Shown piece after piece: positions 928-44,122 of a stretch of 64,000 bases of DNA. The number at the start of each line of letters is the position of its first letter. The first letter of the stretch is position 1. This stretch comes from an archaeon (GTDB taxonomy: Archaea; Nanobdellota; Nanobdellia; Pacearchaeales; DTIR01). A model generated the notes under the pieces. The model worked only from the letters and a program-made list of their open reading frames with translations. It did not search any database and was not told where the DNA came from. The stretch spans positions 220,986 to 284,985 of the forward strand of contig JAZDNM010000003.1 of the NCBI GenBank assembly GCA_043799715.1, written 5' to 3'. The position numbers were made by a program, and so were the translations under genes.

Positions 928-3375
928 TCACTCCCTTAGCCTGCCTATGCCTGAATACAGCTTCATTATTCTGTTGTAATACTTTCTCTTTTCCCTCTGA
1001 GGCAGCGCGTCATACAGGCTTCTTGTCTGGGTGTAATAATGCCTTGCAAGTGTTATGTCTTTTTCTGAAATTGCCTTCTTGGTTCTTTCAATGAAGCTGT
1101 TCAGCAGTGCTCTCTTCCTTTTTATGTCCTTTTCCTCCTCTTTTGATTTCAGCAGCTGCATTTCCTTTCTTGTTATTGCAACAGCAAGCGCAGCGAGTAT
1201 CAGGGTTATTGCAAGTATAAATTGGAACAAGCCGCAGTCATGCCTGCATGAAAAAATTTCAGCGAGCTCGCATTTTTCATCCCCGCATTTCGGAGCTCTC
1301 GGGTAACCAAGGGCGCATGCCTTGCACGGCCCTCCGCAGTCAATCCAGTCCTCCCCCTGATTCTGTATTCCGTCAGAACATGTAGTGCAGGGCTTGCACG
1401 GCCCTCCGCAGTCAGGCAGGACTTCACACATGCCATCGTGGCAGTTTAATATGCTGTCATAACAATCAGGAAGAAGCGTGAATGCGCAAACCTGCATTTC
1501 CTTTGGCTGTTTGCTTGTTGACCTGCAGTTTGCCTTGTCAAAACACGAGCGTGTCTGAAAGCCGCATTCCCCTGATAACAGGGAAGAGCAGTTTGAGATG
1601 ACTGTTTCATAGATATTTCCCAAAATTGCAATTGAGTCAGGAGTTGATGCATTCTGGCATAAGCTCCAGTCAGTGCATATCCACTGTTCTGTACAGCCTC
1701 CGCCGCCGCCTCCGCCTCCTCCTGAAACTGCTGTTGATACTATAGGGGCGGAATTCACAGTCACATTCCAGACAACAGTATCATTCAGCAGCCCGTCTGT
1801 TGCAAGCGCTGTCACATTGTATGCTCCTGCAGCGCCTGATGATGTTGAGAAGGTGTATGTTGAATTTGCGAGGATGAAAATATCATTTTTGTACCATAAT
1901 ATTGAAGGTGTTGTGCCATCCTCATCTTCAGCAGTTGCATTGAAAGTTATGCTCTCGCCCTCTGTTATGGACTGAATTCTATTTTCAGGATAATAGGATG
2001 TTATGTTTGGGGCATGGTTCTCAAGGGTTATTGTGAAAGAAACATTTTCGCATGCATTTTTTGGGGCGGCAGTCTGGTTGCAGAAGGAGATGTTTGCAGG
2101 AGCAGTAAATCCCAAGTCAGTAACGCATATCCTTACAGCATAAGTCCCGTTTATTGTCGCATTTGCAGAGAAATTTATGTTTCCTGTTGCAGCATTTATT
2201 GTGAAGAATGTTGTGCCGCTTGTGAATGTTGAATTGAACCTCAATGCGCCTGGAGTGTCCCCATCTTCCTCATCGCTGGCATAAGCAGTGTAATTAAGGC
2301 TGCTGTTGATATAAACTGTCTTTGCTCCTATGTGCTGCATTACAGGGGCGTCATTCGTGCTTATTATGTTCAGCGCAAAATCCTTGAAATCAGAGGCTTC
2401 CTCGTCAGAGACATAAACTCTTATAGAGTAGACATTTGCCTGCAGTGAATTTGGGGTAAAATCTATCTGCCCTGTGTTCTCGTTTATTACAAAAAGTGCT
2501 GTGTTGTCATAAAAATGCAGGGATTCTGTCCTGTACCTTACAGGGATAAGCAAGTCCTCGTCAGTTGCAGCTGCCTGATAAAGGAAATTGGCATCCTCGC
2601 ATGTCTGCATGTCCGGAATTATTCCAAGCAAAGGAGCGTCATTCACATTCAGCACAGTAAAATTAAACCCTGATGAGTTGGCGGCATTCCTTTCATCTCT
2701 GACTGTGATATTCATGGAATGAAATCCCACATCAGAGTCATTCGCAGAGAAATTAATCAGCCCATAGATATTAAAATCAAATGAGGGGAATATCGCAGAA
2801 GTTGAATTGTGAGTGAAGTTTATGCTCTCATTGTTCGGCTCAACAACAAAAGAGCTGAGGTTTACTGTAAAAAGAATATCCTCTGTCAGATTGAAGTTTC
2901 TCGTGTAATTTATCCAGTAAGGCACCCTGTTTGGGGGAAATATCTCAAGCGAGAATGTTGTTGAGCTGTTTGAGATATTTCCACAAAGCCCATGCGTTGC
3001 CCATATCAATACAGTGTAAGTTCCTGTCTCATTTTCCAGGGGAGTAAAGTTAATCAGCCCGCTTGTCCTCGATATAAAGAAACTTGTAAGATTTGCCTTG
3101 CCTGCTGCCTGGCTTGTCCTGCCATAATAGTATATTGGATTTCCTGAATCAGTTGCAATTACCTGATGTGTGAAATTGCTTCCTGCAATTGCTGTCTTGT
3201 CTGTTATTGATCCAAGAGTTGGCGGTCTGTCAATGCAAACTCCCACTCTTCCAAGGCTTGCCTTCCCGACTGTTAAGTTGCCGGTAATTTTCATCCACAC
3301 AAAAAGGTTGCCTGCAAGCGAGAGCAGCGCGAACATAACGATAATCAGGGCTATTTTATTGTTGTCTAACCTCAT
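928..3375 (-). CDS. Large membrane-anchored surface protein with cadherin-like repeats, a Cys-rich stalk and a cytoplasmic tail
   Basis: 815 aa with an N-terminal signal or TM segment. Three repeats carry an (N/H)(D)AP cadherin-like motif: VNDAPLL, TNDAPVM and ENHAPNIT. Sequons are dense. A Gly9 linker precedes a Cys-rich region with two DCGGPCK(P/A)C repeats, then a TM helix (FQFILAITLILAALAVAIT) and a ~100 aa K/E/R-rich tail. Confidence 0.6.
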   Translation of the reverse strand: MRLDNNKIALIIVMFALLSLAGNLFVWMKITGNLTVGKASLGRVGVCIDRPPTLGSITDKTAIAGSNFTHQVIATDSGNPIYYYGRTSQAAGKANLTSFFISRTSGLINFTPLENETGTYTVLIWATHGLCGNISNSSTTFSLEIFPPNRVPYWINYTRNFNLTEDILFTVNLSSFVVEPNNESINFTHNSTSAIFPSFDFNIYGLINFSANDSDVGFHSMNITVRDERNAANSSGFNFTVLNVNDAPLLGIIPDMQTCEDANFLYQAAATDEDLLIPVRYRTESLHFYDNTALFVINENTGQIDFTPNSLQANVYSIRVYVSDEEASDFKDFALNIISTNDAPVMQHIGAKTVYINSSLNYTAYASDEEDGDTPGALRFNSTFTSGTTFFTINAATGNINFSANATINGTYAVRICVTDLGFTAPANISFCNQTAAPKNACENVSFTITLENHAPNITSYYPENRIQSITEGESITFNATAEDEDGTTPSILWYKNDIFILANSTYTFSTSSGAAGAYNVTALATDGLLNDTVVWNVTVNSAPIVSTAVSGGGGGGGGGCTEQWICTDWSLCQNASTPDSIAILGNIYETVISNCSSLLSGECGFQTRSCFDKANCRSTSKQPKEMQVCAFTLLPDCYDSILNCHDGMCEVLPDCGGPCKPCTTCSDGIQNQGEDWIDCGGPCKACALGYPRAPKCGDEKCELAEIFSCRHDCGLFQFILAITLILAALAVAITRKEMQLLKSKEEEKDIKRKRALLNSFIERTKKAISEKDITLARHYYTQTRSLYDALPQREKRKYYNRIMKLYSGIGRLRE

Positions 3376-5104: not shown

Positions 5105-5188
5105 TTTCCTCTTTTTTTGCTTCAGCATAAAGGCAAATAAATACCTTTCGGTTTCTTTATAATAATATCCCAAAAAATAGCATTGAAC

Positions 5189-6402: not shown

Positions 6403-8685
6403 ATGGGTTTAAACGCAGCAGGGAAAAACTTTCTTTGCATTGCAATTCTGTTTGCATTTGTTTCAATAATACTTTCTTCATCAGCATTTGCAGTGTCAAC
6501 AAGAAGTTACTGTAAATATGCAGGCGGCTCAGGAAGCTATGCTTGTGATTCAGGCGCTGTAAGCGGAAACTCTGCAGCCTGCGCTGCTGCAAATGGGGCG
6601 CAATGCGCACAAGAAGGGGATGTTTTCTGCTACGCTGAATCAACATGCGAAGCAGGCACAACATTGAAGGGGCCTATATACACCTATAATGTGAACTGGG
6701 ATGCTGACTCTGCTGACTGCTCATGCAAGGCAGGAAGCAGCAGATGGGGCATAAGATTTATTTCAGGGACAACAGGACAGTGCTGCGGAGATGATGCAAG
6801 CGAATACTTTATTGGCGCAACAAATCAGAAAAATATTGACAAGATTGACACATGCTGCAAGTCAGATGCATATGTATTCAACGGAGTTTGCTGCGGAGAT
6901 GATGCAAGCGAATATTATGCAGGCTCAACAAACGGCAAGAGCTGCGACGGAACACAGGCATGCTGCAGCTCCCCGAGCTTGTATTCCCTGAACAGCAACT
7001 GTGTTTCATCATGCCCGGCTGTGACATCAGTGTACTGGACTGACCTTTCAGGAACAAGGATAAACTCCACAGAGCTAAATGATTATGTAATGCTTGTTGC
7101 AGAAACATCAGGCGCAGAAGGGATGCTGATTAACTTCACACTATGGGAAGAGGGAATAGTAAAATGCTATGAGGAAGTATCAAGAGCTTATTCAAATCAG
7201 GGCAAGGCATCTATTCTCTGGAAAGTAAAAGCCTGTGCCGACGGCTCAAACGACGGAAATAAATTCAAGGCATTTGTAAGTTCAACTCCCCTGATTTATC
7301 TTGAATCAGGGCTTCTTGCTGTCTCGCTTGTTGAAAGCGACAAGCTGCCTGTTGCTGTGATATCACAGCCAGCAGACGGGGGAATTTTCAATCTTGGGGA
7401 TAACATAAACTTTGTCTCAGGAAGCTATGATCCAGATGACCTGATAACCAGTGTAAAGTGGGATTTTGGAGACGGATACACAAGCATGCTCGCAAACACA
7501 ACGCATGCTTACTCTGCAGGCGGTCCTAAATTTGCAATACTGACAGTCCAGAACTCAAGGGGAAAGACAGCAGAAGTCAGAATAGGCATTCTTATAAATT
7601 CATCATCTGATGATCCCCCTCTGGCGATGATATCATCTCCAAGTTACGGGGAGAAATTTTCAGGTATGCTTATAACATTCAATGCAACAATGAGCAGGGA
7701 TGACAGAACTCCTTTCAACCAGCTGATATTCAAATGGGAATTTGACGACGGCAGTTCGCCTTATTCAGGCACTGGCATTTCAGGGGCATATTTCACAAAA
7801 CTGTTCTCAACAGCAGGGGAGCATCTTGTAAAATTAAGCGTTGATGACTCAGGACCTGGCTCGTTAACAGAAACATCATTTTCCATAAATGGCTGCCAGG
7901 TTCCGCTTGACGGCACTTCTGAGTTTGTTCCGTTCGGCAGCTGTTCTTCTATAAGCAAGCATTACTTCTGCGCCAACGAAACAACATATTATGATACAAT
8001 GGAAGAGCACTGCGAGGGCGCTGACAAGCAGGCGCTGACGTCAGACGACTGCTGCCCGAGAGGATTTTATTGCCCTGCTATTGGAGCTGCCTGCTCAGAG
8101 AGATCAAGCAACTGCGCAAGTTACAATATTTCTGCTGAATGTGAACAGTATGGGTGCATATGGCTGAACTCATCATGCGCAGAGCCGGCAGGAATGTCAT
8201 CCTGCTCTGATTATAAAAGTGAGGCTGCGTGCAATACTGATGTGCTCGGATTAGGAAGGTCAGTTGGAAGAGGGCTTGGCACCGACATCTGCGGAAGGAC
8301 ATTCGGAAGCTATCTCGTGAATGCATCAAGCTGCAAGTGCGGATGGGAACCTGCAGGAAGCCCGTCTGGAAACTGCAAATTTGGCTATTCTGTTGTGAGG
8401 ATTATTCCCGGGAATGTCACATTCATAACCTGCATGAAATCATTCACATTAAGCGACTGTGTTGCAGGAACCCAAAGCATGAACTGGACTGCATTAATAC
8501 TGCCTTCGGAACTTGCTGGAAACGAGACAGCAAGACAGCAATGCAGTGAAGGATACAAGGGAATAAAATGCGGAGTTTCAATCTCAAGGCTGCCATTTTT
8601 CGGAATTTTCAATTTTGTCCTTGCTGTAGCGGCAATTGCGCTCTACTATCTCTCTGCTGCAACAAGAAGGAACATCAAAAAATAA
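6403..8685 (+). CDS. Cys-rich surface protein with PKD-like domains and a C-terminal TM anchor
   Basis: Signal peptide MGLNAAGKNFLCIAILFAFVSIILSSSAFA. The CCGDDASEY module is duplicated. Two PKD-like signatures are present, WDFGDGYTS and FKWEFDDGSS. A C-terminal TM helix precedes an RRNIKK tail. RBS-like aaagagg lies upstream. Confidence 0.7.
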   Translation: MGLNAAGKNFLCIAILFAFVSIILSSSAFAVSTRSYCKYAGGSGSYACDSGAVSGNSAACAAANGAQCAQEGDVFCYAESTCEAGTTLKGPIYTYNVNWDADSADCSCKAGSSRWGIRFISGTTGQCCGDDASEYFIGATNQKNIDKIDTCCKSDAYVFNGVCCGDDASEYYAGSTNGKSCDGTQACCSSPSLYSLNSNCVSSCPAVTSVYWTDLSGTRINSTELNDYVMLVAETSGAEGMLINFTLWEEGIVKCYEEVSRAYSNQGKASILWKVKACADGSNDGNKFKAFVSSTPLIYLESGLLAVSLVESDKLPVAVISQPADGGIFNLGDNINFVSGSYDPDDLITSVKWDFGDGYTSMLANTTHAYSAGGPKFAILTVQNSRGKTAEVRIGILINSSSDDPPLAMISSPSYGEKFSGMLITFNATMSRDDRTPFNQLIFKWEFDDGSSPYSGTGISGAYFTKLFSTAGEHLVKLSVDDSGPGSLTETSFSINGCQVPLDGTSEFVPFGSCSSISKHYFCANETTYYDTMEEHCEGADKQALTSDDCCPRGFYCPAIGAACSERSSNCASYNISAECEQYGCIWLNSSCAEPAGMSSCSDYKSEAACNTDVLGLGRSVGRGLGTDICGRTFGSYLVNASSCKCGWEPAGSPSGNCKFGYSVVRIIPGNVTFITCMKSFTLSDCVAGTQSMNWTALILPSELAGNETARQQCSEGYKGIKCGVSISRLPFFGIFNFVLAVAAIALYYLSAATRRNIKK
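6781..6914 (+). repeat. Perfect 26-nt direct repeat (tgctgcggagatgatgcaagcgaata) at 6781-6806 and 6889-6914 inside the surface-protein gene
   Basis: Seen directly in the sequence. It encodes the duplicated CCGDDASEY peptide. Confidence 0.85.
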
Positions 8686-8749
8686 CGCTTTTTCTGGAAA
8701 AAGTTTATAAATTGTTTTATGCTTGTTGATTTGGCAAAAGAGGAATTAT

Positions 8750-11443
8750 ATGTCAAGCAAATCAGCATTTTTGGTTTTGATAACTGCTCTTGCAGCAATA
8801 ATGGCTGTATCCTATGCAATTGCAGAGGTTTCAGGCAGCGGAATGATTCTGACAAGAAGCATGTATGGAATAGGGGAGGCAATTGAAGGGAAAGTTAACA
8901 TTACGCTTTCAAGCGAGCCTGCTGACAGCGCTGTAACAGCTTTGGGAAAAAATACTTCTTTGCTGGATTTCCTGAAAAATAATAATCTTGAAAAAGACAA
9001 GGATTATTTATGCACTCCTGAAGACTGCAATGACTATTATGAGACTGTTGGAATCAGCACAAAGCAAAAATCCCTGCAGGCAGGCGACACACTAATTGGA
9101 AGCATAGCAGTAGGGAAGGACATTGAAATAAAGCAGAATGCATTGGAATTCAGCATAACAGGCAATGGAGGAGAACCAGTATGCGGCGTTGTCCCCCTGA
9201 AGCTGGACTTGCTTGCAGATAACTCAATTGACTGGGTTGATATGGAGCCCTCTGATTTGTGCGGAAGCCTGCAGCCAAGCAGCTGCTATGACGATACTTC
9301 AGCAAATCTTGAGCTTGACATTACAACAACCCCCTACTGCCAAAAAATTTACTTGCCTATTTCAGCGAGATTTAAAATTTCAGCGCTTGTAAAAAAGAAT
9401 ACTGGCGGAGGGGATTTGTCTGCTTTCATATATGACAAAAAAATAGGAGAAAGCACAGAATGCGACCTTCCTGAGCCGAATGTGACTTCTTACACTGAAA
9501 CAAACTGCATGGTGGACTTGAAGGTTTACGGCAACAATCAGGATTATTATGTATGCATCCAGGATAATTCTATTGACGGCGCATACACAATAAAGGCAGA
9601 GAAATCCTCCCCTATATGCGGATACAGCGACCTTCCTGGAAGATCAAGGAACGAAAGCGCTGATTTCGCGCTTCTTGTGCAGGGAACTGCAACAATTCCA
9701 TTAAACAGGACAGTAACATTCAATGAGCAGGAATTCAGCAAGTTTTCTTCTGTAGGCATAGGGGAATATCTTCAGGATTATCTCAATAAAAGGCATTCAA
9801 GCAATTGCCTTGACGGATGCATAATTCCTATAAGGATAATCTCATCAAACGCAGCAAACTTAAAAGATATGAGACTAAGCTACTGCGCCCAGGGATTATG
9901 CACAACAGAACAGAGCTTTTTCGGGCTTGAAAGAAAAAGTTCTATGATTGACATGAACATGACATCCCTTGATTTGTCTGCTGCAAATTTGTCTGCTGAG
10001 GGATATGGGCTCCAGACATTCTCCTTTTCAATAGGCGGAGTAAAGATAGGAGAAGAGGAAATTTCAATAGAAAGAGTTCCTGTAATAAAGAATCTTGTAG
10101 CGCTTAATGCAGAAGCAGGGGCTGCTGTTGATTTTTTTGCTGAGGCATATTCCCCAAAGAACAACACAATTGTAAGCTATGAATGGATATTTGGGGATGG
10201 CGGCACTGCAACAGCAGGGAGCTCTGTAACTCATGAATATAAAAATGTAGGGGAATTTAAGGTTACTGTAACAGCAGTTGATTCACAGGGATTGAAGGGA
10301 AGCAGAAGTTCAAAAATAACTGTGGGCTCACCGCAGGAGATAATTAATATGACTCTCTCTGGCAAGAGGATAATATTCAACGAGCTTAAAAATGAGATTG
10401 ACAAGGCAGGATGGTACAAGGGGCTTATTGAAAAGCAGCTTGGCACAGCAGAAATAAGCACTTTGCTCAGTGATTATGAAAACCAGTTCAGATTCGCAAC
10501 AACCCCGTCGGAATATATAGAGCTTATGCCCAAAGTCAGCAAGTTCATAATACCCCAGTCAATTTATGACTCTGAATTTGTTACAGAGATTCCAATTACT
10601 GTTGATGTTGATTCAATAAAGCCGGAGCTTATTGAAGGGCTTAATGGCGGCGTGTATGACTCCTCAAGAGCATCTGAGACAAGAAACGCAATATGGGCAT
10701 GGCAGCACAAGAATGTTGCCATGACAGCGACTTCAAGAGTGATGGAATCCATTGATGAGAATGAGAATAGGGCAGAGCTTGCAACAATTATTACACTTAG
10801 AATAAAGCCATTGACCCAGTTGGAAGAGAGCTATCTTGTTATTCTTGCGCCTTATGAAAGCGCGACATTTGCATCAGATTACAATCAGAGAGATGTTGCA
10901 GGGAATATAGGATTTGTGCTTGACAGCCTGAGCTCTGATTATATAATTTCATTTGCTGTTACAGGGCGCGTTGATATAAGCAGCCTTGAGATGTTTATGT
11001 CCCCTTATCTGGCAAATCTCGAAATTGAGGAGAATATTGTGTGCAACAGCAACAGGGTATGCGAAAAAAATCTCGGGGAAAACTGGAAGACATGCAGAGA
11101 TGACTGCAAGCCAATAGGACTCGCTTTAATCCTGCTTATTTTTGCCCTAGCTGCAATGGCTGCAGCATATATTTTCCTGCAAAAATGGTACAAAACAAAA
11201 TACGAGAAGTATCTGTTCAAGGAGCAGCATGATTTAAGCAATATGGTGTCGTTTGCAAGCAACTCACTGAGAAGAGGCGAGAGCGAGAATGATGTAAAGG
11301 GTAAGCTCAAACAGGCAGGATGGAATCTTGAGCAGATATACTATATCTTCAGGAAAATAAAAGGCGAAAAGGTTGGGATGCCTGAAGTGAAAATTAAATG
11401 GCTTGACATGGTAAAAAACCTGCTCAAGCACCGAAAGGTTTAA
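8750..11443 (+). CDS. Large surface protein with a PKD-like domain, C-terminal TM anchor and ~100 aa cytoplasmic tail
   Basis: ATG at 8750 with aagaggaa upstream; the track ORF starts at TTG 8723. Signal peptide MSSKSAFLVLITALAAIMAVSYAIA. PKD signature YEWIFGDGGTATAGSSVTHEY. A Cys motif CNSNRVCEKNLGENWKTCRDDC precedes the TM helix IGLALILLIFALAAMAAAYIFL. Confidence 0.7.
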   Translation: MSSKSAFLVLITALAAIMAVSYAIAEVSGSGMILTRSMYGIGEAIEGKVNITLSSEPADSAVTALGKNTSLLDFLKNNNLEKDKDYLCTPEDCNDYYETVGISTKQKSLQAGDTLIGSIAVGKDIEIKQNALEFSITGNGGEPVCGVVPLKLDLLADNSIDWVDMEPSDLCGSLQPSSCYDDTSANLELDITTTPYCQKIYLPISARFKISALVKKNTGGGDLSAFIYDKKIGESTECDLPEPNVTSYTETNCMVDLKVYGNNQDYYVCIQDNSIDGAYTIKAEKSSPICGYSDLPGRSRNESADFALLVQGTATIPLNRTVTFNEQEFSKFSSVGIGEYLQDYLNKRHSSNCLDGCIIPIRIISSNAANLKDMRLSYCAQGLCTTEQSFFGLERKSSMIDMNMTSLDLSAANLSAEGYGLQTFSFSIGGVKIGEEEISIERVPVIKNLVALNAEAGAAVDFFAEAYSPKNNTIVSYEWIFGDGGTATAGSSVTHEYKNVGEFKVTVTAVDSQGLKGSRSSKITVGSPQEIINMTLSGKRIIFNELKNEIDKAGWYKGLIEKQLGTAEISTLLSDYENQFRFATTPSEYIELMPKVSKFIIPQSIYDSEFVTEIPITVDVDSIKPELIEGLNGGVYDSSRASETRNAIWAWQHKNVAMTATSRVMESIDENENRAELATIITLRIKPLTQLEESYLVILAPYESATFASDYNQRDVAGNIGFVLDSLSSDYIISFAVTGRVDISSLEMFMSPYLANLEIEENIVCNSNRVCEKNLGENWKTCRDDCKPIGLALILLIFALAAMAAAYIFLQKWYKTKYEKYLFKEQHDLSNMVSFASNSLRRGESENDVKGKLKQAGWNLEQIYYIFRKIKGEKVGMPEVKIKWLDMVKNLLKHRKV

Positions 11444-18030: not shown

Positions 18031-18125
18031 TGCTCCCGACGGGACTCGAACCCGTGTCGCAGGCGTTCTCTTTACTTTTTATGTAGACGAGAGGCCCGCA
18101 TACTTGGCCGCTATACTACGGGAGC
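18031..18125 (-). tRNA. tRNA-Glu (anticodon CUC) with a 22-nt intron at the canonical 37/38 position
   Basis: The reverse complement folds as acceptor GCTCCCG/CGGGAGC, T arm ACGGG-TTCGAGT-CCCGT, anticodon stem CGGGC/GCCTG and loop CTCTCG|C. The intron lies at + strand 18066..18087, and its GAGA can pair with the anticodon-region TCTC in a BHB-like arrangement. Folded by hand. Confidence 0.65.
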
Positions 18126-18128
18126 ATA

Positions 18129-18227
18129 TAGCCCCGCACGGATTCGAACCGTGGTCGCAAGGTTTCTTAAGCATTTTATGAATCTGCTTCCAGAGCCTCG
18201 CATACTGGACCGCTATACTACGGGGCT
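18129..18227 (-). tRNA. tRNA-Gln (anticodon CUG) with a 26-nt intron at 37/38
   Basis: The reverse complement folds as acceptor AGCCCCG/CGGGGCT with A1:U72 and A73, T arm CACGG-TTCGAAT-CCGTG, and anticodon stem CGAGG/CCTTG. Compensatory changes relative to tRNA-Glu support the stem. The intron lies at + strand 18164..18189. Folded by hand. Confidence 0.6.
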
Positions 18228-18600: not shown

Positions 18601-18673
18601 GCCTCAGTAGCTCAGTTGGTAGAGCACGACATTGGTAATGTCGGGGTCGAGAGTTCAATCCTCTCCTGAGGCT
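18601..18673 (+). tRNA. tRNA-Thr (anticodon GGU), no intron
   Basis: Acceptor GCCTCAG/CTGAGGC, D arm GCTC-AGTTGGTA-GAGC, anticodon stem CGACA/TGTCG with loop TTGGTAA, T arm GAGAG-TTCAATC-CTCTC. Confidence 0.85.
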
Positions 18674-19101: not shown

Positions 19102-19578
19102 TTATTTTTGGTATTTTTTTATATTTATCCCCAAGTCCACTGGTCCGAATGCCAATGGCAGAAGTTCCTCTATACTTGACATGATAATCTTGTCTTTCTT
19201 TGTTGTTGATATGATAACTTCTATATTTTTTCCTGAAATCTGCGATGACTCATAAATCATCTGCCTGCAGCTTCCGCACGGGGCTGTAACTTCCTTTGTG
19301 TCAAAGTTTGCCCCTCTCGCAATTATAGCGATGCTGTCATACATTCTCTTGTTCATGGAATTAGCTTTAAGCAGTGCGGCTCTTTCTGCGCAGATTGTTG
19401 AGCCGTATGCAGCATTCTCAACATTTGAGCCGGTGATAACCTCTCCATCTTGCGTGAGTATCGCAGCGCCAACATAGAACTTAGAATAGGGATTGTATGC
19501 TGTTTCCATTGCTGTTTCCGCTTTTTCAAGCAAAAGCTTCTGGATTATTGTCAATTCTTCGAGTTTAACCTGCTTCAT
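19102..19578 (-). CDS. cdd: Cytidine deaminase
   Basis: CAERAA and PCGSCRQ zinc-binding motifs. 158 aa. Confidence 0.85.
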   Translation of the reverse strand: MKQVKLEELTIIQKLLLEKAETAMETAYNPYSKFYVGAAILTQDGEVITGSNVENAAYGSTICAERAALLKANSMNKRMYDSIAIIARGANFDTKEVTAPCGSCRQMIYESSQISGKNIEVIISTTKKDKIIMSSIEELLPLAFGPVDLGINIKKYQK

Positions 19579-19580
19579 TT

Positions 19581-21260
19581 TTATTTCCTGCCTTTTCTTT
19601 CCGGCTTCAGTCTTCTTGGAGAATCATTGCCAAGTTTCCTGACTTCTACATTTGTCAGGAACCCATACGGCGAAATTTCCTGGGTGTGCACAAATCCTGA
19701 ATCAGAGCCGCAATACCCAAATCCCCTTGCATATTTCCCCCCAACCATCTCCAGCTGGTTCAGCATCACATAAGGGTTTCCCAAAAGATACGCGCTCGAA
19801 ACAGGAACTATCTTCCCATTGGTGTATATCCTGGATATAATATCAGGAGCCAGTTTAAATTCACCTGTGCCTGTTAAAACTTCTCCGCCGCCGCCTTCAA
19901 CAAGCAGCCCATAATCAAGCCCTTTCTGCCTGCATACTGAAATCATCCTGTTTACTAAATCCTCAAATTTATGGTTTACAGATGATTTTACTTCAAGAAT
20001 GCTGATTCTTGGTTCTGTAAAATAATTGTTTGTATCAATGTCATAATAATCAAGCCCTCTGCAGTCGTTGCTTGCCCTTGAACAGCCGTTTGATTTTATG
20101 CCTCTTCTTCCCGCGGTTGTCCTGTCATGAAGGTAATTTTTCAGGATTCCATTTTCTATTATAGGTATGCGCTGGCTTCTGACACCTTCTTCATCATAAT
20201 TGTATGAACCCCATTCTCCCTCTTTTGTAGGGTCATTATAAAGAGACAGGAAAGCAGGCATTATTTTCTCGCCTATCTTGCCTTCAAAAGTTGTTGCGTA
20301 ATCCTCATCAATGCATTTGGCTGACAGCAGATGCGCAACAGCACCTTCATGGAATAATACACCCAGGGCAGTGCCGTCCATTATAACAGGATAAACCCCT
20401 GAGGGCTGGACTTCACAATCAACTCTTTCTTTTATTTTGCGTTCGAGATTGCTCAAATCAGAGAAAATTTTATTCTTGTTGAGGATATTCTCTGGAATGA
20501 GTCCTGCCCTGTTTTGGGAGTATTCCACTTCCCTGCCCTCCTTGTCCTCTAATGTAACTGAAACCCTGAAATAAGCCCCTACATCAGATGTTGAAACAAT
20601 TCTCTTGTTTATGCCGTTCTCTGCTGTTCTCTCAAAACTGACAAGGTCTCTGTTTACTCTCTGCACTGACGCTTTTGCCCAGCAGTCCCTAATCCCTTTC
20701 ATATTGCATAATCTGCTTGTTATCCTCTCTAAAATTCCCCCAACTTCCTCTGCATTCACATTGATGTGCTTCTCCTTTTCACGATAATCCACTGATTCTT
20801 CTTTTGAAAGCTTCTTGAACTTGTCATTCCTGAATTCAGTGTATTCTGCGTGGTATTTCCAGTAATTTTGCAACGCGGTTTTGAGGGCATTCTCTGTTAT
20901 TTCGTCTATCTTCCTCTTCATGGCAGAGCTGCCCCTTATAGGCGCATCCTGATTATAGCAGGAATATCCTACTCCATTTCCCTGCTCATCTATCAAATCC
21001 CCCACTCTTGTTTCAACTCTCAGAATGTTATCTTTAATGAGGCATGCGTCAGGCGCTGTAGTCAGTCCGCCCTTGTCTGCGACAAGTTCTATCTCTTCCT
21101 CTTTTTTAAGGCAGAAAGCGATTTGCCGGGGATAAAAATCAATTTGGTGCACTGAATTTTTTCCTATTTTTGGAGTTCCTGTGACAGCCCTTGACTGGTT
21201 GACACTCATCCACTTCTCTGCACTGTTTTCCATTAGCTGAATTATGTCATCAAGCGCCAT
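19581..21260 (-). CDS. TldD/PmbA-family metallopeptidase-like protein
   Basis: LFHEGAVAH and GFGYCGSDSG motifs, typical of the TldD/PmbA family. 559 aa. Confidence 0.65.
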   Translation of the reverse strand: MALDDIIQLMENSAEKWMSVNQSRAVTGTPKIGKNSVHQIDFYPRQIAFCLKKEEEIELVADKGGLTTAPDACLIKDNILRVETRVGDLIDEQGNGVGYSCYNQDAPIRGSSAMKRKIDEITENALKTALQNYWKYHAEYTEFRNDKFKKLSKEESVDYREKEKHINVNAEEVGGILERITSRLCNMKGIRDCWAKASVQRVNRDLVSFERTAENGINKRIVSTSDVGAYFRVSVTLEDKEGREVEYSQNRAGLIPENILNKNKIFSDLSNLERKIKERVDCEVQPSGVYPVIMDGTALGVLFHEGAVAHLLSAKCIDEDYATTFEGKIGEKIMPAFLSLYNDPTKEGEWGSYNYDEEGVRSQRIPIIENGILKNYLHDRTTAGRRGIKSNGCSRASNDCRGLDYYDIDTNNYFTEPRISILEVKSSVNHKFEDLVNRMISVCRQKGLDYGLLVEGGGGEVLTGTGEFKLAPDIISRIYTNGKIVPVSSAYLLGNPYVMLNQLEMVGGKYARGFGYCGSDSGFVHTQEISPYGFLTNVEVRKLGNDSPRRLKPERKGRK

Positions 21261-21273
21261 TTTAACTCAAAAA

Positions 21274-23751
21274 TCACTCCTTGTGGGACTTTTCAAGAAC
21301 TGCAAGCCTCTTGGGCATCAGTTTCTCAAGAATTGGGTCCACAATAATCTCCCATTTATGGTATCCTTTCTCGAAATCAGGATAATAATTTATGACTCCT
21401 CTGAGCCCTGGAGTTTTTCCGCACCTATCAACATAATTGTTCCATGGCTGCATTCCAAAACCTTCAGTGTAGGAAGTACCGTCAGCAAAACCAATTCCCC
21501 CGTGATGCTTATGGAAATAGATTACTGCATCAGCTTTCTTGTTCATCCTGAGCACCTGTGTCATGGCTCTTTCCATCTCATCATGCCCTGCCCACATCTT
21601 ATGCGAAGTGTAAATAGTATGCCCATCAAGTTCAAATGCACCTGAGCCAAATTCGTCTCCAGGCGAGGAAACAATTTCCACTTGGTTGTCCCGATTGTAT
21701 TGTTCAGGTATCAGGCTGCCTAAAAGGATTGCTTCTTCCCTGCCATTCCGCTGATTGTTATAATGATTGCCGCTTACTATCACTGTTCTGCCCCCGTTAT
21801 CCAAGCACTCAAGCACATAAGGCAGCACTCTTAATTTCCATTCCCTGATAATTTTGTCAGTCGGCTGGATAGGCGAAGTATAAATGAATTTCTCCAGAAC
21901 CAATCTCTCAAGCAGATTTATCCTATTTTTAGGAGTCAAGCTTTTGTCATTTTTTATTTCTTCCATTTTTTCTTCAATTTCTTTTGGAACAAGAGCAAGA
22001 TTATGTTTTGCCATTATGTAATAAGAATCCATGTCGTCATGAAGATGCTCGCTCAGCAAAAGAACATCAGGCAGTCCTTTTTTTCTCTGGTATTTCTGGG
22101 CAGCATCAATGAATTCATAGTTGCTTGGTCTTCCTGGATGATTATCCACTCCCAGTTCAAAATCTCCTTCAATGCTCAATCTCTTGTCAGGGTTGATTTT
22201 CACAAGGCTCTCAAGATTTCTTATTTCCTCTTTTATATGCTCTCTCCTGTTTTCTTTTGCTTTTTTCAGCAATTTTCTTTTTTTGTCAATCTCCTTCTTT
22301 ATTTCCCCGAATCTTATCAAGTCAGGCATCTCCAGATATTCTATTATTGGAGCTTCAGTGTCTGAAAAAGTCTGTATCATTGCGCCAGAAGCATAATTCT
22401 TTTCGCTGAATCTCTTGGTGTGCCAGTTCTTGATGCCCTTGCTTTTGCATACCTGCAAAAGCTCAGTTGACTGGAAAGTTGGAAGCTTGAAAAGATAATT
22501 TGGCTCAGGCGTTAAGCGCTCGCCATTTGTTTTTTCGCTGTATTTTCCCTCGACAAAGCATCTTAAGCCCCCTGTGCCGTGGGCAGTGAGGATAACATCA
22601 GGCACAGGCATTTTGAGCTCATCCGAGAGCCTGTTCAGGAAATTTGATTCCAATCTTAATTTCTTGATTGAATCAGCAGAAACATTGTCAGACCTTATTG
22701 AGTTGGGATTGTGAACAAGGAGGAATGTCAAGTCAGTCGCCTTGATTTGCTCCTGCTCTTTTCCAAAAGAATAAATATCTTTTATTGTCCTGTCTTTTCC
22801 CCTGTAGGAAAAATTGACAAACTTTTCGCTTGTTGAATGAGTCTGGAACTTGTCAAAACTGCTGAATATGACATCAAGGGATGCTGACTGGTACTCTTTT
22901 TTCGAGAGATGAAATGCAATTTCCTCCTGCTCTGCAGTCATCTCCTTTCTTTTGGTTATGTTAAAGAACTGTGATGCCTCTTTTTCCCTTTGAATCGCGT
23001 TTATTTTTTGCTCTATGTCCCGTATTTTGCCAGTCATCCCTGCTATTTCTTTTTCAACCTGCTTTAATTTCTTGCTGCTTTCCTTTTTCCTTATTAATCT
23101 GTCCCGCTGTGTTTCAAGCACAGAAGAAGTTTCTTTGAATTTTTCAAGATATTCATTAAGCCTCTTTTCATTTTCTTCTGTCTGAACATACTCATTTATT
23201 TTTACTTCCTTCTGGTTCTCAATGTTCTTGTAATCCTCCTCGCCATACTGATAGTGAAGTGATGCATTTCCTGCGACTGTTGCAAGCTTGTCAATCTCGC
23301 GCTTTGCAAAATCAGTCGCCTCACTTGTAAGGTTTATTTTTTTGGATATGTAATCCTTGTAGAACTCCTGATTGTCCCCTGAAAGCTTTGTCTTGTCAAC
23401 AAGAAAACCCTTGTCGTCTTCCTTGTTCGGGTCCTTGCCCAAAAATCTCATGTCCTGTGCGTTTCCTCGGGAATAGAAAAAAGGTATATGTGGGACTAAT
23501 CCCCCCTGGATTATGACTGAATTGATTTTGTCTTTGTAGCCGTTCTTCTGCATCCAGAAAACCAAGCCGTCCATTGCCCTTGAATCATAAACTTTTGTTC
23601 CGAAACCCATCTCGGCAAGATAAAGAAATTTCAAATCCCTGCTCTTTTTCTTTGATGTCAGGATATCGTGGGGATGAACCTTCTTTTTTCCGTTTTTCCT
23701 GTGGTTATTATTGGAAGACTCCACCCTTTTTTCCAATGTCTCTGTTACCAT
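21274..23751 (-). CDS. Large coiled-coil protein with a C-terminal calcineurin-like metallophosphoesterase domain
   Basis: 825 aa. The central K/E-rich heptad region is predicted coiled coil. C-terminal motifs are LLSEHLHDD, VIVSGNHYN (GNH) and FHKHHGG. Confidence 0.55.
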   Translation of the reverse strand: MVTETLEKRVESSNNNHRKNGKKKVHPHDILTSKKKSRDLKFLYLAEMGFGTKVYDSRAMDGLVFWMQKNGYKDKINSVIIQGGLVPHIPFFYSRGNAQDMRFLGKDPNKEDDKGFLVDKTKLSGDNQEFYKDYISKKINLTSEATDFAKREIDKLATVAGNASLHYQYGEEDYKNIENQKEVKINEYVQTEENEKRLNEYLEKFKETSSVLETQRDRLIRKKESSKKLKQVEKEIAGMTGKIRDIEQKINAIQREKEASQFFNITKRKEMTAEQEEIAFHLSKKEYQSASLDVIFSSFDKFQTHSTSEKFVNFSYRGKDRTIKDIYSFGKEQEQIKATDLTFLLVHNPNSIRSDNVSADSIKKLRLESNFLNRLSDELKMPVPDVILTAHGTGGLRCFVEGKYSEKTNGERLTPEPNYLFKLPTFQSTELLQVCKSKGIKNWHTKRFSEKNYASGAMIQTFSDTEAPIIEYLEMPDLIRFGEIKKEIDKKRKLLKKAKENRREHIKEEIRNLESLVKINPDKRLSIEGDFELGVDNHPGRPSNYEFIDAAQKYQRKKGLPDVLLLSEHLHDDMDSYYIMAKHNLALVPKEIEEKMEEIKNDKSLTPKNRINLLERLVLEKFIYTSPIQPTDKIIREWKLRVLPYVLECLDNGGRTVIVSGNHYNNQRNGREEAILLGSLIPEQYNRDNQVEIVSSPGDEFGSGAFELDGHTIYTSHKMWAGHDEMERAMTQVLRMNKKADAVIYFHKHHGGIGFADGTSYTEGFGMQPWNNYVDRCGKTPGLRGVINYYPDFEKGYHKWEIIVDPILEKLMPKRLAVLEKSHKE

Positions 23752-23873
23752 TTCGAAATTAAGAGTTACCCCTTTTAAATAGATTTATGAGATTTCAAAA
23801 TATCTTTTGCGAAATATAAATTAACAGAGATTGAATTGTAAAGGTTTAAAAATCTCTTGAGTATTAAGGAGAA

Positions 23874-24365
23874 ATGGCAAAGATATCTGATTCTCTTCTG
23901 GAAAAACTGAAGAATGACTATGAAAAATTCAGAAAGAAATACAATCTGCCTGGATTCCAGCAGCTTAATGAGGAATTTGAGATAGAGAGGATAGCAGAGC
24001 ATGAAACAGATTTATTGTTGAGGGAGATAAGAAAGGCGATAACTGAAAAAGCAGTTGCATTCCTAAGATTTCTTGAGCTGATGATAAATCCGAGTGCCGC
24101 GCCGTTCTTCCTGCTTTCAGTAATAAAGCATCTTAATGCGTCTGACAAAAAGGTTGTCAATGAAATCTACAGGAATGTTTGCGATTTCGAGATAAAGGCA
24201 ATTGCACTTGACATGAAATACAGCGAGAAAGCAGAGGTGGAGTTCATAAAATATGCCTCAGGCAAATGGCAGAAAATGCATCCTGATTTACAGGAGTTAA
24301 GCAGGGCAATAGACAAGGCATGGAATGCCTCATTTGAAAAGAAAGAAAGAAGCTATTTCGGGTGA
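23874..24365 (+). CDS. Hypothetical protein (163 aa)
   Basis: ORF with aaggag upstream. Confidence 0.4.
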   Translation: MAKISDSLLEKLKNDYEKFRKKYNLPGFQQLNEEFEIERIAEHETDLLLREIRKAITEKAVAFLRFLELMINPSAAPFFLLSVIKHLNASDKKVVNEIYRNVCDFEIKAIALDMKYSEKAEVEFIKYASGKWQKMHPDLQELSRAIDKAWNASFEKKERSYFG

Positions 24366-25141: not shown

Positions 25142-26086
25142 ATGAGAGTAATATACGCAACTGACTTGCACGGGCACAAAGGGCTCTTTGAAAAGCTGTT
25201 TGAGGAAAGGGCTGATGCTGTTATCATGGGGGGAGATGTCCTGCCGAATTGCGTAGTCGGGACAGAAGCTGCGCTGGATGCCCTTTCAACAAAAGAATAT
25301 TTTGAGATAATGGCAGCAAGCCAAAGGGATTTCCTGAAGAGATATCTTGTTCCTCGAATTGATGAGTTTAGGAAGAAAAATAAGCCAGATGTTTATATCA
25401 TGATGGGAAATGACGATTTTTCCTACAATCTTGATTTATTGGAGGATGCTGAGAAAAAAGGGATTTTGAAATTGCTGTATGACAAGAAAAATGAGAAACC
25501 AAAGGTGCATGAAATTTCAAAAGATGTATTCATTGCAGGCTATCCTTATGTGCCCCTGACACCTTTTGGGATAAAAGACTGGGAAAAATTTGACAGGGAT
25601 GAAAAGCCGCAGAGAGATTGCAATTTTTTGGGGTATAAAAGCTGCAAGAAGTCGAATGAATATTCTATAACTGAGGCAGATTTATTATTATCTCAAAAAG
25701 ATAATATTGCAAAAGATTTGGAGGATTTTGTTTCTGATGCTGGGAAAGAGAAAATAGGGCAGATGATAATGGTAATGCACTCTCCTCCCTCAAATACAGT
25801 GCATGACATAGCGGGATTTCATGAAGGCTGGATGCATGTTGGCTCAATTGCAATAAGGGAGTTTATTGAAAAATACCAGCCATTATTAACCTTGCATGGG
25901 CATATTCATGAGTCATATAAACGGACAGGAGAATACAGGCAGGATATCGGCAGAACAATATGCATTAATCCTGGAACAGATAAGTATAATTTGTATGCTG
26001 TAATATTTGATTCTGACAATCTTTCTGATATGGAGATTATAGTAAAAAAAGCAGAAGAGATAGAAGAAAAGCCAAGAGGGCCTTAA
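25142..26086 (+). CDS. Calcineurin-like metallophosphoesterase
   Basis: Motifs DLHGH, GGD, GNDD, HSPP and GHIH in the canonical order. Confidence 0.75.
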   Translation: MRVIYATDLHGHKGLFEKLFEERADAVIMGGDVLPNCVVGTEAALDALSTKEYFEIMAASQRDFLKRYLVPRIDEFRKKNKPDVYIMMGNDDFSYNLDLLEDAEKKGILKLLYDKKNEKPKVHEISKDVFIAGYPYVPLTPFGIKDWEKFDRDEKPQRDCNFLGYKSCKKSNEYSITEADLLLSQKDNIAKDLEDFVSDAGKEKIGQMIMVMHSPPSNTVHDIAGFHEGWMHVGSIAIREFIEKYQPLLTLHGHIHESYKRTGEYRQDIGRTICINPGTDKYNLYAVIFDSDNLSDMEIIVKKAEEIEEKPRGP

Positions 26087-41620: not shown

Positions 41621-43681
41621 TTAGTGAACAGTTGTGATGCCGTCATCCTTCCTGAAACGGATGATGTTTTCCACAAAGCTTTCCATCTTTGCCTCGTGGC
41701 TGACAAGTATGAGCTGCTTGACTTTTAATTCTGCAAGAACATCGCGCATCCTGTCAAGCTGCTCTGATGAAAAGCCGTCTGTCGGCTCGTCAAGTATGAG
41801 AATATCCCTTGTGCTTATCTTGCTTATGAATGAGTTAATAACTTGGTTTAATGCAAGGCGATAGGCAAGGGCAACTGCTGTTCTCTCGCCTCCTGAAAGG
41901 AATGAATAATCCAGCTCATATCCCCTTGACTCTATTATTGGAGTAAAATTCTCATCAAGCCTTACTGACAGTTCAGAGACAAGCATTGAAAACCATTTCT
42001 CAAATAATTGTGAGAAATCAGAATGCAATTTTGCCATTACTGCTTTTTCAATTGCTGAAAGAACAACAGGAAACCTGTCCTGAATCCATTTCCTGAGCTT
42101 GTTGAGATATGCAATATCCAGGATTATTTTTTCTTTCTGCAGAATTTCCTTTTCAATTGCAAGAATTAAATCAGCCATATTCTCTGTCTCTTTCTCTACT
42201 TTTGCCTTGCTTATTGCAGCTGCTTTTTCCTGCTCCCTGACTTTTTCTACTTCTCTCCTTGATTTTTCAAATTCCTCCTCAAATTTCTCAAATTCCCTTG
42301 CCTTTTCAAGCAAAGCTGAGAGTTCATTATCCAATATCCCTGATTTCTCAGCTGCTTTTTCAATTGTTGAATTAAGTTTTTTCAAGTCAGCTTCCCTCTC
42401 CTCTATTCTTGAAATTCTGTTCCTCATCATTATCTGCTCCTTCTCTTCTGTCTGAAGCTCAACAAGCTGCCTTTTCTGTGCTGATATGCTCTTGTCAAGA
42501 GCTTCTTTTTGCAGTGTCTTGTCCTTTATCACAGAATCAAGCTTCTCAATTACTGTATCAGATTTTTCCATTATGCTCCGCTTGTGCTTGGGAGGCACAT
42601 CCTGCATACAGAGAGGGCATACATCAACTTCGCTTATGCTTATCTTAACACTCTCATTATGCTTTTTTTCATGGTTCATTGCAGAGATTTCCTTTTCCAC
42701 TGCAAGCCGCTTTGCCTCTGCATCTGAAATCAGTTTCTCTTTTTCTGCGCGCTGCTGCTCAATATTCTGAAACCTGAAATTTTTTGTTTCTTCCCTGCTC
42801 TCTACTATCTGCCTGCTGAGAACTTTTTCCTGCGAAATGAATTCCTTAAGCTGCTCTCTGGCTGGCAAGACAGCAGCTTTTTTTGCAGCTGTTTTTTCCT
42901 TCAGCTCATAAAGCTCTGATGCCTTTTTCTCAATTTCATTCTGCTGGATTTTCTTTTCTCTCAGAATCAGCTGCAGGGCTTCAAGCTCTTTTCTTGATAT
43001 TTCCAGCTGCTGCCTTAATTTCTCAATCTCGCTTTTCTTTGCTGAAACCTCATTCTTCTTTGTTTCCAAGTCAGCAGTCATTCCTTCCTTGTTTTTTATT
43101 GATTCCCTGAGCCTTGCGGAAAATATGCTGAGATTTTCTGAAACCGCCTTGTATTTGTCTATGCCGAATATTCTTCTCAGCGTGTCTGTCCTGAGCTCTG
43201 ACTTCTCAAGAAGAATTTCTCTCATTGATTCCTGCGGAGTGTAAATCGTGTATCTGTAAAGCAGATTGGTTTTTGTAAGATATTCCTGGGGGTAATTCAG
43301 GATTTCAAGCACTTTTTGCTTTAATTGCGTCGGAGAAAGTTCATATTTGTCATTGTCTATTGTGATTTTGCCTGCTTCCTGCGTGACAGAGTTCTTGTTT
43401 CTTTTCAGTATTCTTTCAATCAGCACATTTTTTCCTGCAACTTCCATCTCAATCGCAATGCTGCCTGTTTTTTCTCCGGCTCTCAACAAGCTGCTGCCTG
43501 AAAGATTCCCTTTCTCAAGCCCGAACATTGCGAATTCAATTGCAAGAAGCACAGAAGTCTTGCCAGAGCCTATGTCCCCTGACAAAAGCGTGCTGCCTTT
43601 CGGAATTGTAACCTCGCCATTCCTGTACGAGCGGATATTCTCAAGAATTATTTTTTTTATCAGCATCTCAATTTCCTCCAC
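41621..43681 (-). CDS. rad50: DNA double-strand break repair ATPase Rad50
   Basis: Walker A GDIGSGKTS. Long coiled coil with the zinc hook CPLC. Signature SGGE and Walker B ILILDE. Confidence 0.85.
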   Translation of the reverse strand: MEEIEMLIKKIILENIRSYRNGEVTIPKGSTLLSGDIGSGKTSVLLAIEFAMFGLEKGNLSGSSLLRAGEKTGSIAIEMEVAGKNVLIERILKRNKNSVTQEAGKITIDNDKYELSPTQLKQKVLEILNYPQEYLTKTNLLYRYTIYTPQESMREILLEKSELRTDTLRRIFGIDKYKAVSENLSIFSARLRESIKNKEGMTADLETKKNEVSAKKSEIEKLRQQLEISRKELEALQLILREKKIQQNEIEKKASELYELKEKTAAKKAAVLPAREQLKEFISQEKVLSRQIVESREETKNFRFQNIEQQRAEKEKLISDAEAKRLAVEKEISAMNHEKKHNESVKISISEVDVCPLCMQDVPPKHKRSIMEKSDTVIEKLDSVIKDKTLQKEALDKSISAQKRQLVELQTEEKEQIMMRNRISRIEEREADLKKLNSTIEKAAEKSGILDNELSALLEKAREFEKFEEEFEKSRREVEKVREQEKAAAISKAKVEKETENMADLILAIEKEILQKEKIILDIAYLNKLRKWIQDRFPVVLSAIEKAVMAKLHSDFSQLFEKWFSMLVSELSVRLDENFTPIIESRGYELDYSFLSGGERTAVALAYRLALNQVINSFISKISTRDILILDEPTDGFSSEQLDRMRDVLAELKVKQLILVSHEAKMESFVENIIRFRKDDGITTVH

Positions 43682-44121
43682 ATATTTATGCTCACAAGCT
43701 TTAATCCAAATTTCTTATGAAGTTTGATAGAAGGTATATTTTTAACAAATATCCAAGCATTCACATCCTTTGCTTTTTTCTTCTTTAACCAAGACAAAAG
43801 TTCTTTTATTATCCCGCTGCCTATTCCCCTGTTTCTGATTCCTTTGTCAACATAAATCTTTTCTATTCTGCCTTTTTTCTTCATTGATGCTTGTCCGAAA
43901 CCTAGAATCCTGCCATTATCTATAGAAACAATCCAGTATTGACTCGGATTTTTTAAACCCCGCCTGAAACTGGCTTCTCTTGTCTTTTTATGTTTTTTAA
44001 ATTCCCTAATTGATTTTTCTCGGCTATTATTAAATTGAAGTTTCATTTCTGTGATTCCGCCTTCGCAGTATATCCTATCAATCTCTTTCAAGTCTTCTGA
44101 TTTTGCTCTTCTTATCAGCAT
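43660..44121 (-). CDS. GNAT-family N-acetyltransferase
   Basis: RNRGIGSGIIKEL acetyl-CoA binding motif. 153 aa. Confidence 0.7.
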   Translation of the reverse strand: MLIRRAKSEDLKEIDRIYCEGGITEMKLQFNNSREKSIREFKKHKKTREASFRRGLKNPSQYWIVSIDNGRILGFGQASMKKKGRIEKIYVDKGIRNRGIGSGIIKELLSWLKKKKAKDVNAWIFVKNIPSIKLHKKFGLKLVSINMWRKLRC

Positions 44122-44122
44122 T

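Follow-up and report, generated by a model that had tools for sequence, protein, structure and literature searches.

What is the role of a protein of 825 amino acids (aa) that is encoded directly upstream of a TldD-like peptidase in an archaeal genome, and does it work together with that peptidase? The gene pair lies in a stretch of 64,000 nucleotides (nt), hereafter the window, of contig JAZDNM010000003.1 (assembly GCA_043799715.1, positions 220,986 to 284,985 of the forward strand) from an archaeon of the Pacearchaeales. The gene for the 825-aa protein (21274..23751, minus strand), whose product is 100% identical to NCBI 'hypothetical protein V1886_01845' of a metagenome-assembled genome (MAG) archaeon, encoded there on a contig of 352,935 bp, is followed by the gene for a 559-aa TldD-like metallopeptidase (19581..21260, minus strand; called as 550 aa by NCBI), with 13 nt between stop and start as read from the sequence. 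An earlier reading of the letters alone, which we call the original prediction, had described a coiled-coil metallophosphoesterase (MPE) next to a lone TldD/PmbA-like peptidase. Both open reading frames (ORFs) are found where it placed them, and the motifs that it quoted are present in the 825-aa protein (VIIQGGLVPH at residue 79, LLSEHLHDD at 565, VIVSGNHYN at 657 and FHKHHGG at 746) and in its neighbour (LFHEGAVAH at residue 302 and GYCGSDSG at 515). We propose, with a probability of about 45%, that the 825-aa protein acts on nucleic acids as a metal-dependent phosphodiesterase or nuclease and that a peptidase is possibly its partner.

The C-terminal domain (residues 521-825; 21277..22191, minus strand), delimited by conservation and MPE fold matches, carries the motifs D530-x-E532, S-E568-x-x-H571, G661-N-H663, H717 and H747-x-H749. 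We counted residue conservation in 56 aligned members of the protein's family. In motif I, Asp530 is kept in 54 of the 56 and position 532 is a His in 52, with Glu in the window protein (D530-F-E532) and in three others. Position 568 in motif II is Glu in 45 members and Asp in 11, followed by x-x-H/N (S-E568-H-L-H571 in the window protein). Motif III is virtually invariant (G661 56/56, N662 55/56, H663 56/56), as are H717 and H749 (56/56 each), and position 747 is occupied by His in 20 members and Asp in 36 (H747-K-H749 in the window protein). The invariance of G661, H663, H717 and H749, together with the fold, bears out the calcineurin-like character that had been ascribed to this domain.

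We compared a full-length AlphaFold2 model, built from an 8-sequence alignment (pLDDT 72, pTM 0.72), with known and predicted structures using Foldseek. Its best structural matches are phage MPE proteins of 360-510 aa in BFVD (E 3.7e-7 to 9e-4, prob 1.0), and the PDB returned the PolD small subunit DP1, TM1076, Vps29, Dbr1 and GpdQ (E 0.014-0.4). The output of the fold search gives no query region for the aligned part, and we attribute these matches, as the likeliest source, to the C-terminal domain. The motifs and the model suggest a calcineurin-type metallophosphoesterase with a near-complete two-metal site that is apparently active, and the predicted domain most resembles the phage MPE proteins and the Mre11-like exonuclease DP1. 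The 825-aa protein would qualify as a member of the MPE superfamily by fold and motifs only.

The N-terminal region also looks like a phosphoesterase, as had been predicted. A model of residues 36-480 (22 sequences, pLDDT 82) has Mre11/SbcD proteins as its nine best PDB matches, headed by Thermotoga maritima Mre11 (4o43 and 4nzv, E 4.6e-4, prob 1.0); 3qg5, 2q8u and 9bi5 are further matches, and Escherichia coli SbcD (6s6v) appears lower down. The TM-scores are only 0.29/0.39 because of a coil inserted into the fold. The module is built from two halves, residues 39-170 (23242..23637, minus strand), with the degenerate motifs E47, QGG84 and GEED173, and residues 297-474 (22330..22863, minus strand), which are defined by invariant columns and fold matches and include the basic motif KGIKNWHTKR (438-447). 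The N-terminal 440 residues show, in the model, an overall Mre11-like nuclease-plus-cap fold, but differ from Mre11/SbcD (4o43, 4nzv, 3qg5, 2q8u; 6s6v) in that other residues stand in place of the canonical metal ligands and a coiled-coil hairpin interrupts the module. Where motif II should have its bridging Asp, there is a Gly: position 84 is Gly in 47 of the 56 members and Asp in one (GD to GG). The regions of motifs I and III have the sequences A-E-x-G-F-G-T and G-E-E-D, respectively. VIIQGGLVP lines up with motif II (IIIAGDLFD) of the window's own Mre11 in an alignment that is non-significant (P 0.23). Other polar residues of the module are highly conserved (D173, N176, H305, D385 and the KGIKNWHTKR motif, in which K438, K441, T445, K446 and R447 are invariant columns), which argues for a retained binding role. 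An internal duplication test aligning the N-terminal with the C-terminal domain (hhalign) was non-significant (E 0.04-0.27), with the pieces aligned in the expected motif order, and alignments of the family profile with the window's own Mre11 and with a nearby 314-aa MPE were likewise non-significant. The presence of two phosphoesterase modules in one functional unit would be a further likeness to the Mre11 dimer.

The coil inserted after the motif-III-equivalent strand (residues 171-296; 22864..23241, minus strand) comprises an antiparallel coiled-coil hairpin and a third helix (helices 171-221, 226-259 and 273-296 in the AlphaFold2 model, the first two antiparallel). It spans ~125 aa, is 33% Lys plus Glu and has no Cys; its length varies across the family, as seen from alignment gaps, and that of the window protein is among the shortest. 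A second, K/E/R-rich helical hairpin of 45 aa (residues 475-520, helices 475-497 and 500-517; 22192..22329, minus strand) joins the two modules. The K/E-rich coil of the original prediction thus exists, but not as a single central element of ~250 aa: its main part is an insertion inside the N-terminal domain. The N-terminus itself is a basic, disordered tail (residues 1-38; 23638..23751, minus strand; pLDDT <50, 21% Lys), and longer homologues carry an N-terminal extension of ~100 aa with weak winged-helix matches (DnaD_N, RPA_C and HTH_24 in P0008 and P0013).

The combination of coil and phosphoesterase had suggested an Mre11-Rad50 logic in one polypeptide. The Mre11-like fold upholds one half of that comparison and the Rad50 half fails, as the Walker A pattern [AG]xxxxGK[ST] is absent from the window protein (and occurs at chance level in 3 of the 56 members), no AAA or SMC Pfam match is found, and there is no CxxC anywhere in the protein. 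A Rad50-like reading, for which Walker A and a zinc hook were sought, is rejected. Mre11/Rad50 fusions of the Mimivirus R555 type (PMC3175470), the nearest published case of both in a single polypeptide, likewise unite an Mre11-type phosphoesterase and a coiled coil in one polypeptide, but they keep the Rad50 ATPase, whereas the 825-aa protein is without Walker A and hook and its coil is a short inserted hairpin. Separate mre11 and rad50 genes are present in the window at 41621..45346, as had been noted: a 407-aa Metallophos-type Mre11-like gene (44123..45346, minus strand) and a Rad50-like ATPase gene of only 686 aa (41621..43681, minus strand; AAA_23 and SbcC_Walker_B). A GNAT acetyltransferase gene (43660..44121) lies between them and overlaps the start of the Rad50-like gene by 22 nt.

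Sequence searches place the 825-aa protein in a family of its own. Scans against Pfam, NCBIfam, PADLOC and PHROGs gave no meaningful match, and neither the protein nor six homologues matched a Pfam or NCBIfam MPE model at E up to 1. Searches of the PDB sequences with phmmer and with the 56-sequence profile returned coiled-coil noise only (haemagglutinin, GCN4, prefoldin, and the Rad50 coil at E 0.1). A word-indexed protein search found eight close relatives, and 169 family representatives, 93 of them at E<=1e-30, came from a profile search that covered 1.84 billion cluster representatives. Members are mostly 800-1100 aa long, align end to end and share ~20-85% identity with the window protein. 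Matches in the genome collection are labelled Woesearchaeota, Pacearchaeota and Nanoarchaeota with two exceptions, L014 and L018 (the loci compared here are labelled L plus a number), which are contigs of 2.6-2.7 kb in bins labelled Pseudobdellovibrionaceae and Methanosarcinales; these are probably mis-binned, since their neighbours match DPANN loci (L018 has the same tRNA-synthetase neighbour). The protein belongs to a family that has no annotation and is confined to DPANN archaea; the literature searched holds no description of it. In terms of novelty, it would represent an undescribed domain architecture and family within the known MPE superfamily, with no new principle. A secreted or membrane protein was considered and rejected, as the most hydrophobic 19-residue stretch scores 0.98 (Kyte-Doolittle) and the N-terminus is not signal-like.

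The neighbouring 559-aa protein is TldD/PmbA-like, as originally predicted: it matches Pfam PmbA_TldD_3rd (PF19289) at E 2.3e-36 over residues 287-512 and E. coli TldD (5nj5) at E 1.5e-14. It shares with TldD the C-terminal catalytic domain, the His-Glu...His region and a conserved Cys, but is ~100 aa longer and belongs to a long-form subfamily (~550 aa) in which PF19289 alone is recognised in all homologues; Pfam detects neither the N-terminal nor the middle TldD/PmbA domain (PF01523 and PF19290) in the 559-aa protein. Its putative zinc motif HEGAVAH (20331..20351, minus strand) is an HExxxxH variant of the TldD motif HExxxH, seen as a gap in the HMMER alignment with HEAVGH of E. coli, and is followed by LLSA in place of the x-LE of TldD. 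The pattern HE[AG]xxAHLLSA, against the canonical HExxGHxLE, is conserved in a DPANN clade of long TldD-like proteins (P0158-P0170, P0173 and P0174). The Cys of GYCGSDSG (19695..19718, minus strand), which aligns with GVCGKEG of E. coli TldD and which we take to be the third zinc ligand, is kept within the pattern CG[SA][DE]SG in this DPANN clade; it is conserved in both the long and the canonical TldD-like proteins and is absent from the most distant PmbA-like matches. The gene is unpaired in that tblastn found no second TldD/PmbA homologue in the 64-kb window. This is less unusual than had been thought: the subfamily stands alone elsewhere too, with no TldE/PmbA partner next to the long orthologues in L022, L023/24, L028 and L050.

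The two genes are probably co-transcribed with a cytidine deaminase gene (19102..19578, minus strand; Pfam dCMP_cyt_deam_1, 3e-18), which begins 2 nt after the TldD-like stop. A TATA-box-like element, TATTTAAAA (23773..23781, minus strand), read from the sequence 22-30 nt 5' of the ATG of the 825-aa gene, may be an archaeal promoter giving a leaderless or short-leader transcript. The transcription unit would start at this element and run through the gaps of 13 nt and 2 nt. On the other side lies a divergent 163-aa gene with no assigned function (23874..24365, plus strand), 71-74% identical to L008_164 and L025_164, which serves as a synteny anchor common to the window, L008 and L025.

We then compared the window with 24 other non-redundant family loci, retrieved via two short peptide patterns; the sample gives no measure of family prevalence. 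The 825-aa/TldD pair, whose recurrence had been raised as a question, recurs in none of them, and no locus has a TldD-like or A1-like neighbour; the 85%-identical orthologue (L008) has an M16 peptidase in that place. An M16 or trypsin-like peptidase lies at most three genes away in 10 of the 24 loci. M16 genes occur in eight loci. In L008 the M16 gene directly follows the family gene, and in the other seven it is upstream: adjacent in L016, separated by a LigT gene in L038, L040, L042, L043 and L049, and at a distance of three genes, beyond LigT and a UDG-like gene, in L013. Trypsin_2 genes lie directly or nearly directly downstream of the family gene in L007 and L009. These peptidase arrangements are co-directional and tightly spaced, and the order M16-LigT-family gene is kept at 40-53% protein identity. 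Of the 108 ORFs that lie up to three genes from the family gene, 11 are M16 or S1 peptidases; of the 81 more distant ones, none is (Fisher p 0.0017, without correction for shared ancestry).

Several loci merit separate mention. A co-directional string of a ~225-aa protein, an M16 peptidase (~400 aa), a LigT-type 2H phosphoesterase (~190 aa) and a ~1020-aa family member occurs in L038, L040, L042, L043, L049, L013 and L016 (for example L040:2146-7739), with a UDG-like insert in L013. In one Nanoarchaeota lineage (L012:698-9585, the same as L002 and L044), a 1004-aa member lies immediately 5' of, and co-directional with, an rRNA operon (16S 4024-5469, a 110-nt tRNA 5597-5706, 23S 5999-9585), which explains the apparent ORF-free 6 kb in L012. 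In another clade of the family, the only neighbours are a small convergent gene and a gene for a class-I tRNA synthetase. In one clade (L006:13-1062 and L030:103-1422), the protein encoded upstream of the family member has 350-440 aa and weak matches to Zot and TrwB-type P-loop NTPases (E 3e-4). A Rad50/SbcC-type ATPase adjoins the family gene neither in the window, whose Mre11-like and Rad50-like genes are 18 kb away, nor in the 24 related loci; this is a further difference from Mre11/SbcD, with which the 825-aa protein shares no sequence-profile similarity.

Close relatives of the window share a frame consisting of the 163/164-aa divergent gene, a variable gene X, a peptidase and, in some, a cytidine deaminase. 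X is the 825-aa gene and the peptidase is TldD-like in the window, and X is an 829-aa family member followed by M16 in L008. X is a 497-aa protein in L025 and a 498-aa protein in L022, and each precedes a TldD-like gene, 75% and 62% identical to that of the window, respectively. The L022 contig begins just before X, with the anchor gene outside it, and the L008 contig ends after M16. The deaminase gene follows the peptidase in the window and L022 only, and L025 has at that place a gene (5085-5720) with a faint LAGLIDADG-family Pfam match, a possible homing endonuclease. The L025 TldD-like gene (3338-5017) is split into ORFs of 133 aa and 324 aa with a continuous tblastn alignment, which points to a frameshift, a stop or an assembly error.

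The 497/498-aa proteins match phrog_1745 'DNA transfer protein' (9e-73) and phrog_221 metallophosphoesterase (4e-9), as well as genes named 'A1-like', 'DNA transfer' or 'metallophosphatase' in 1119 phage records. They have more than 200 database relatives, the few with source names being all archaeal. The possibility that the L022 protein is a truncated member of the 825-aa family was rejected, as it belongs to a separate, A1-like family. This archaeal family, of 450-510 aa and without a Pfam domain (L022:277-1773, L025:1742-3235, L028:4001-5524, also L026 and L027), lies directly 5' of a long TldD-like gene in three genomes, including L028, where a 45%-identical A1-like member precedes the long TldD-like gene, itself followed at once by HNH, recombinase and resolvase genes. 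Host DNA degradation by bacteriophage T5 requires A1, which also suffices for it; the protein is described as a putative metallophosphatase similar in structure to nucleases of double-strand-break repair and of polymerase proofreading (bioRxiv 10.64898/2026.04.02.716235). The literature searched contains no description of a cellular DPANN branch of the T5 A1 family.

The profiles of the 825-aa and A1-like families align by hhalign over 210 columns with all MPE motifs collinear (P 0.0056, HH probability 6.5%), and both families share an [SA]NY[DE]xI motif after motif I; controls, which compared a profile with a single sequence and so had lower power, gave P 0.04-0.23. The predicted C-terminal domain would thus resemble T5 A1 (phrog_1745), weakly, through its motifs, and the archaeal A1-like genes fill the same slot 5' of the TldD-like gene in sister genomes. 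The 825-aa protein differs from A1 in having no A1-type N-terminal region, with the Mre11-like module and coil instead. It finds no match to phrog_1745 at E up to 0.1 and, by tblastn, none in 50,697 phage records.

How might such a protein work? In the reading that we prefer, catalysis would reside in the C-terminal domain, which would make the protein a metal-dependent phosphodiesterase or nuclease of nucleic acids. The N-terminal module, being dead, could stand in for the second protomer of an Mre11-type dimer and bind substrate or partners, providing a scaffold for the substrate through the invariant basic KGIKNWHTKR motif, and the coil, with the winged-helix extension of longer homologues, may serve in oligomerisation or in binding a partner or nucleic acid. 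The phosphoesterase and the peptidase may act together. Such a two-part 'phosphoesterase plus peptidase' module is suggested by the repeated co-directional adjacency to M16, trypsin-like and TldD-like peptidases, and also by the replacement of the 825-aa gene by a T5 A1-like phosphoesterase 5' of the same TldD-like gene. Its likeliest purpose would be the breakdown or processing of nucleic acid and protein, either for salvage in an auxotrophic symbiont or for the removal of protein-blocked nucleic-acid ends. Both purposes fit the data, which do not separate them; the attached cytidine deaminase would suit salvage. In a bolder and distinctly unlikely form, DPANN archaea would have a modular two-gene system with interchangeable parts that dismantles nucleic-acid/protein complexes, the 825-aa family or the cellular T5 A1 homologue supplying the nuclease-like part and a TldD-like, M16 or trypsin-like enzyme the peptidase part. 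Candidate roles for it would be the repair of DNA-protein crosslinks or protein-blocked ends, or the digestion of host-derived or invading nucleoprotein.

Several observations weigh against our proposal. No other locus of the family has TldD as a neighbour, a nearby peptidase is missing from 14 of the 24 other loci, and many neighbours of family genes are housekeeping genes (ribosomal protein S2, tRNA synthetase, rRNA). The peptidase enrichment statistic takes loci as independent, ignoring shared ancestry. The assignment to the MPE superfamily draws on motifs and moderate-confidence models (full-length pLDDT 72; TM-scores 0.2-0.4) and is unsupported by sequence-profile methods, the Pfam, NCBIfam and PDB profile searches being negative; the link to the A1-like family is weak at its P value and HH probability. 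The Glu in place of the motif-I His could impair the window protein, and MPE domains also act on proteins, nucleotides and lipids.

These points give some room to a different view, possible if on balance unlikely, in which the TldD-like adjacency is incidental and the 825-aa protein is a stand-alone housekeeping phosphoesterase for DNA/RNA end processing or repair, with nearby peptidases reflecting compact DPANN genomes and inherited synteny. The absence of TldD from all 24 other loci speaks for it, as do neighbours such as S2, a TyrRS/TrpRS-type synthetase, LigT, a UDG-like gene, GNAT and the rRNA operon, the TldD-like genes without an MPE neighbour in L023/24 and L050, and the origin of most M16 cases in one clade. 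It accounts less readily for the four arrangements with peptidases from three unrelated families, which lie close by and in the same direction in every case, for their enrichment near the family gene (p 0.0017), and for the four related genomes in which a TldD-like or M16 gene always follows the MPE gene, the MPE gene itself differing. That same exchange between relatives that are 75-85% identical (825-aa against A1-like, TldD against M16) would be expected of a variable conflict module for defence or counter-defence, with a nuclease-like sensor or effector and an interchangeable protease effector at a swap hot spot. The A1-like partner family is otherwise a phage gene for host-DNA degradation, HNH, resolvase and LAGLIDADG genes adjoin the module in L028 and L025, and, among defence proteins, LmuA and the RT-proteases have protease domains that the trypsin-like neighbours resemble. 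We nonetheless consider this improbable, as PADLOC has no match for the 825-aa, A1-like, TldD-like or M16 proteins, the PADLOC matches of the trypsin-like proteins are to the generic protease domain only, and most family loci lie among housekeeping genes with stable synteny.

Two other readings concern the protein rather than its setting. It could be a non-catalytic scaffold, or a protein or small-molecule phosphatase that regulates, for example, the peptidase partner, with no nuclease activity: the metal ligands of the N-terminal domain are lost, the window protein carries H532E, MPE-fold scaffolds such as Vps29 are among the fold matches, and the MPE superfamily includes protein phosphatases. 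Seven of the eight canonical C-terminal ligands are, however, invariant or conservatively replaced across ~20-85% identity, which argues for retained catalysis, and by fold the protein is closest to nucleases (Mre11, DP1 and phage MPE proteins), so that we regard this reading as quite improbable. Finally, the PolD DP1 chains, a Mre11-like proofreading exonuclease of MPE fold, are the top PDB matches of the full-length model (E 0.014-0.04, prob 0.92-0.98), and some phage look-alikes are annotated 'DNA polymerase II small subunit', as if the protein were a highly divergent DP1, the small subunit of the archaeal D-family DNA polymerase. We reject this identification as extremely improbable. The protein has no Pfam DP1-type match, its N-terminal domain matches Mre11 and not the DP1 OB fold, a DP2 gene adjoins the family gene in 0 of 25 loci, and the family, with its 169 representatives, is rare for a replicative subunit, which one would expect to meet everywhere in these lineages. 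The preferred reading remains that of a nucleic-acid phosphodiesterase or nuclease with a possible peptidase partner.

The surroundings of the pair are those of a typical DPANN-type archaeal stretch, with PKD/Ig surface proteins, class-I LysRS, the CCA-adding enzyme, PheRS, FttA (aCPSF1) and RNase J. The regions 928..3375 (minus strand), 6403..11443 (plus strand) and 50667..52109 (minus strand) encode large proteins in which Ig-like, PKD and lamin-tail domains occur, as is typical of DPANN surface and host-contact repertoires. Just 3' of the predicted operon lie three tRNA genes (18031..18125 and 18129..18227, minus strand; 18601..18673, plus strand); the minus-strand pair, with lengths of 95 and 99 nt, may contain introns or have long variable arms. 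The 314-aa protein mentioned above is a second, ordinary metallophosphoesterase (25142..26086, plus strand; Metallophos_3 and Metallophos matches), encoded on the opposite strand 1.4 kb from the 825-aa gene.

DPANN archaea obtain nucleotides and amino acids from their hosts, and a role has been assigned to only a minority of the proteins specific to their lineages. To this inventory the 825-aa protein would add an undescribed MPE architecture, in which a dead Mre11-like module, interrupted by a coil, is joined to a presumably live phosphoesterase domain. One chain would thereby form a 'pseudo-dimer' within itself, where Mre11 needs two. A further outcome of the analysis is a TldD clade whose putative metal motif is lengthened to HExxxxH. 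The recurrence of peptidases from three unrelated families, together with the alternation with a cellular T5 A1 homologue, suggests a coupled nuclease-peptidase activity. If the modular system does exist, it would be a previously unrecognised nuclease-protease partnership and would give the T5 A1 family a cellular role.

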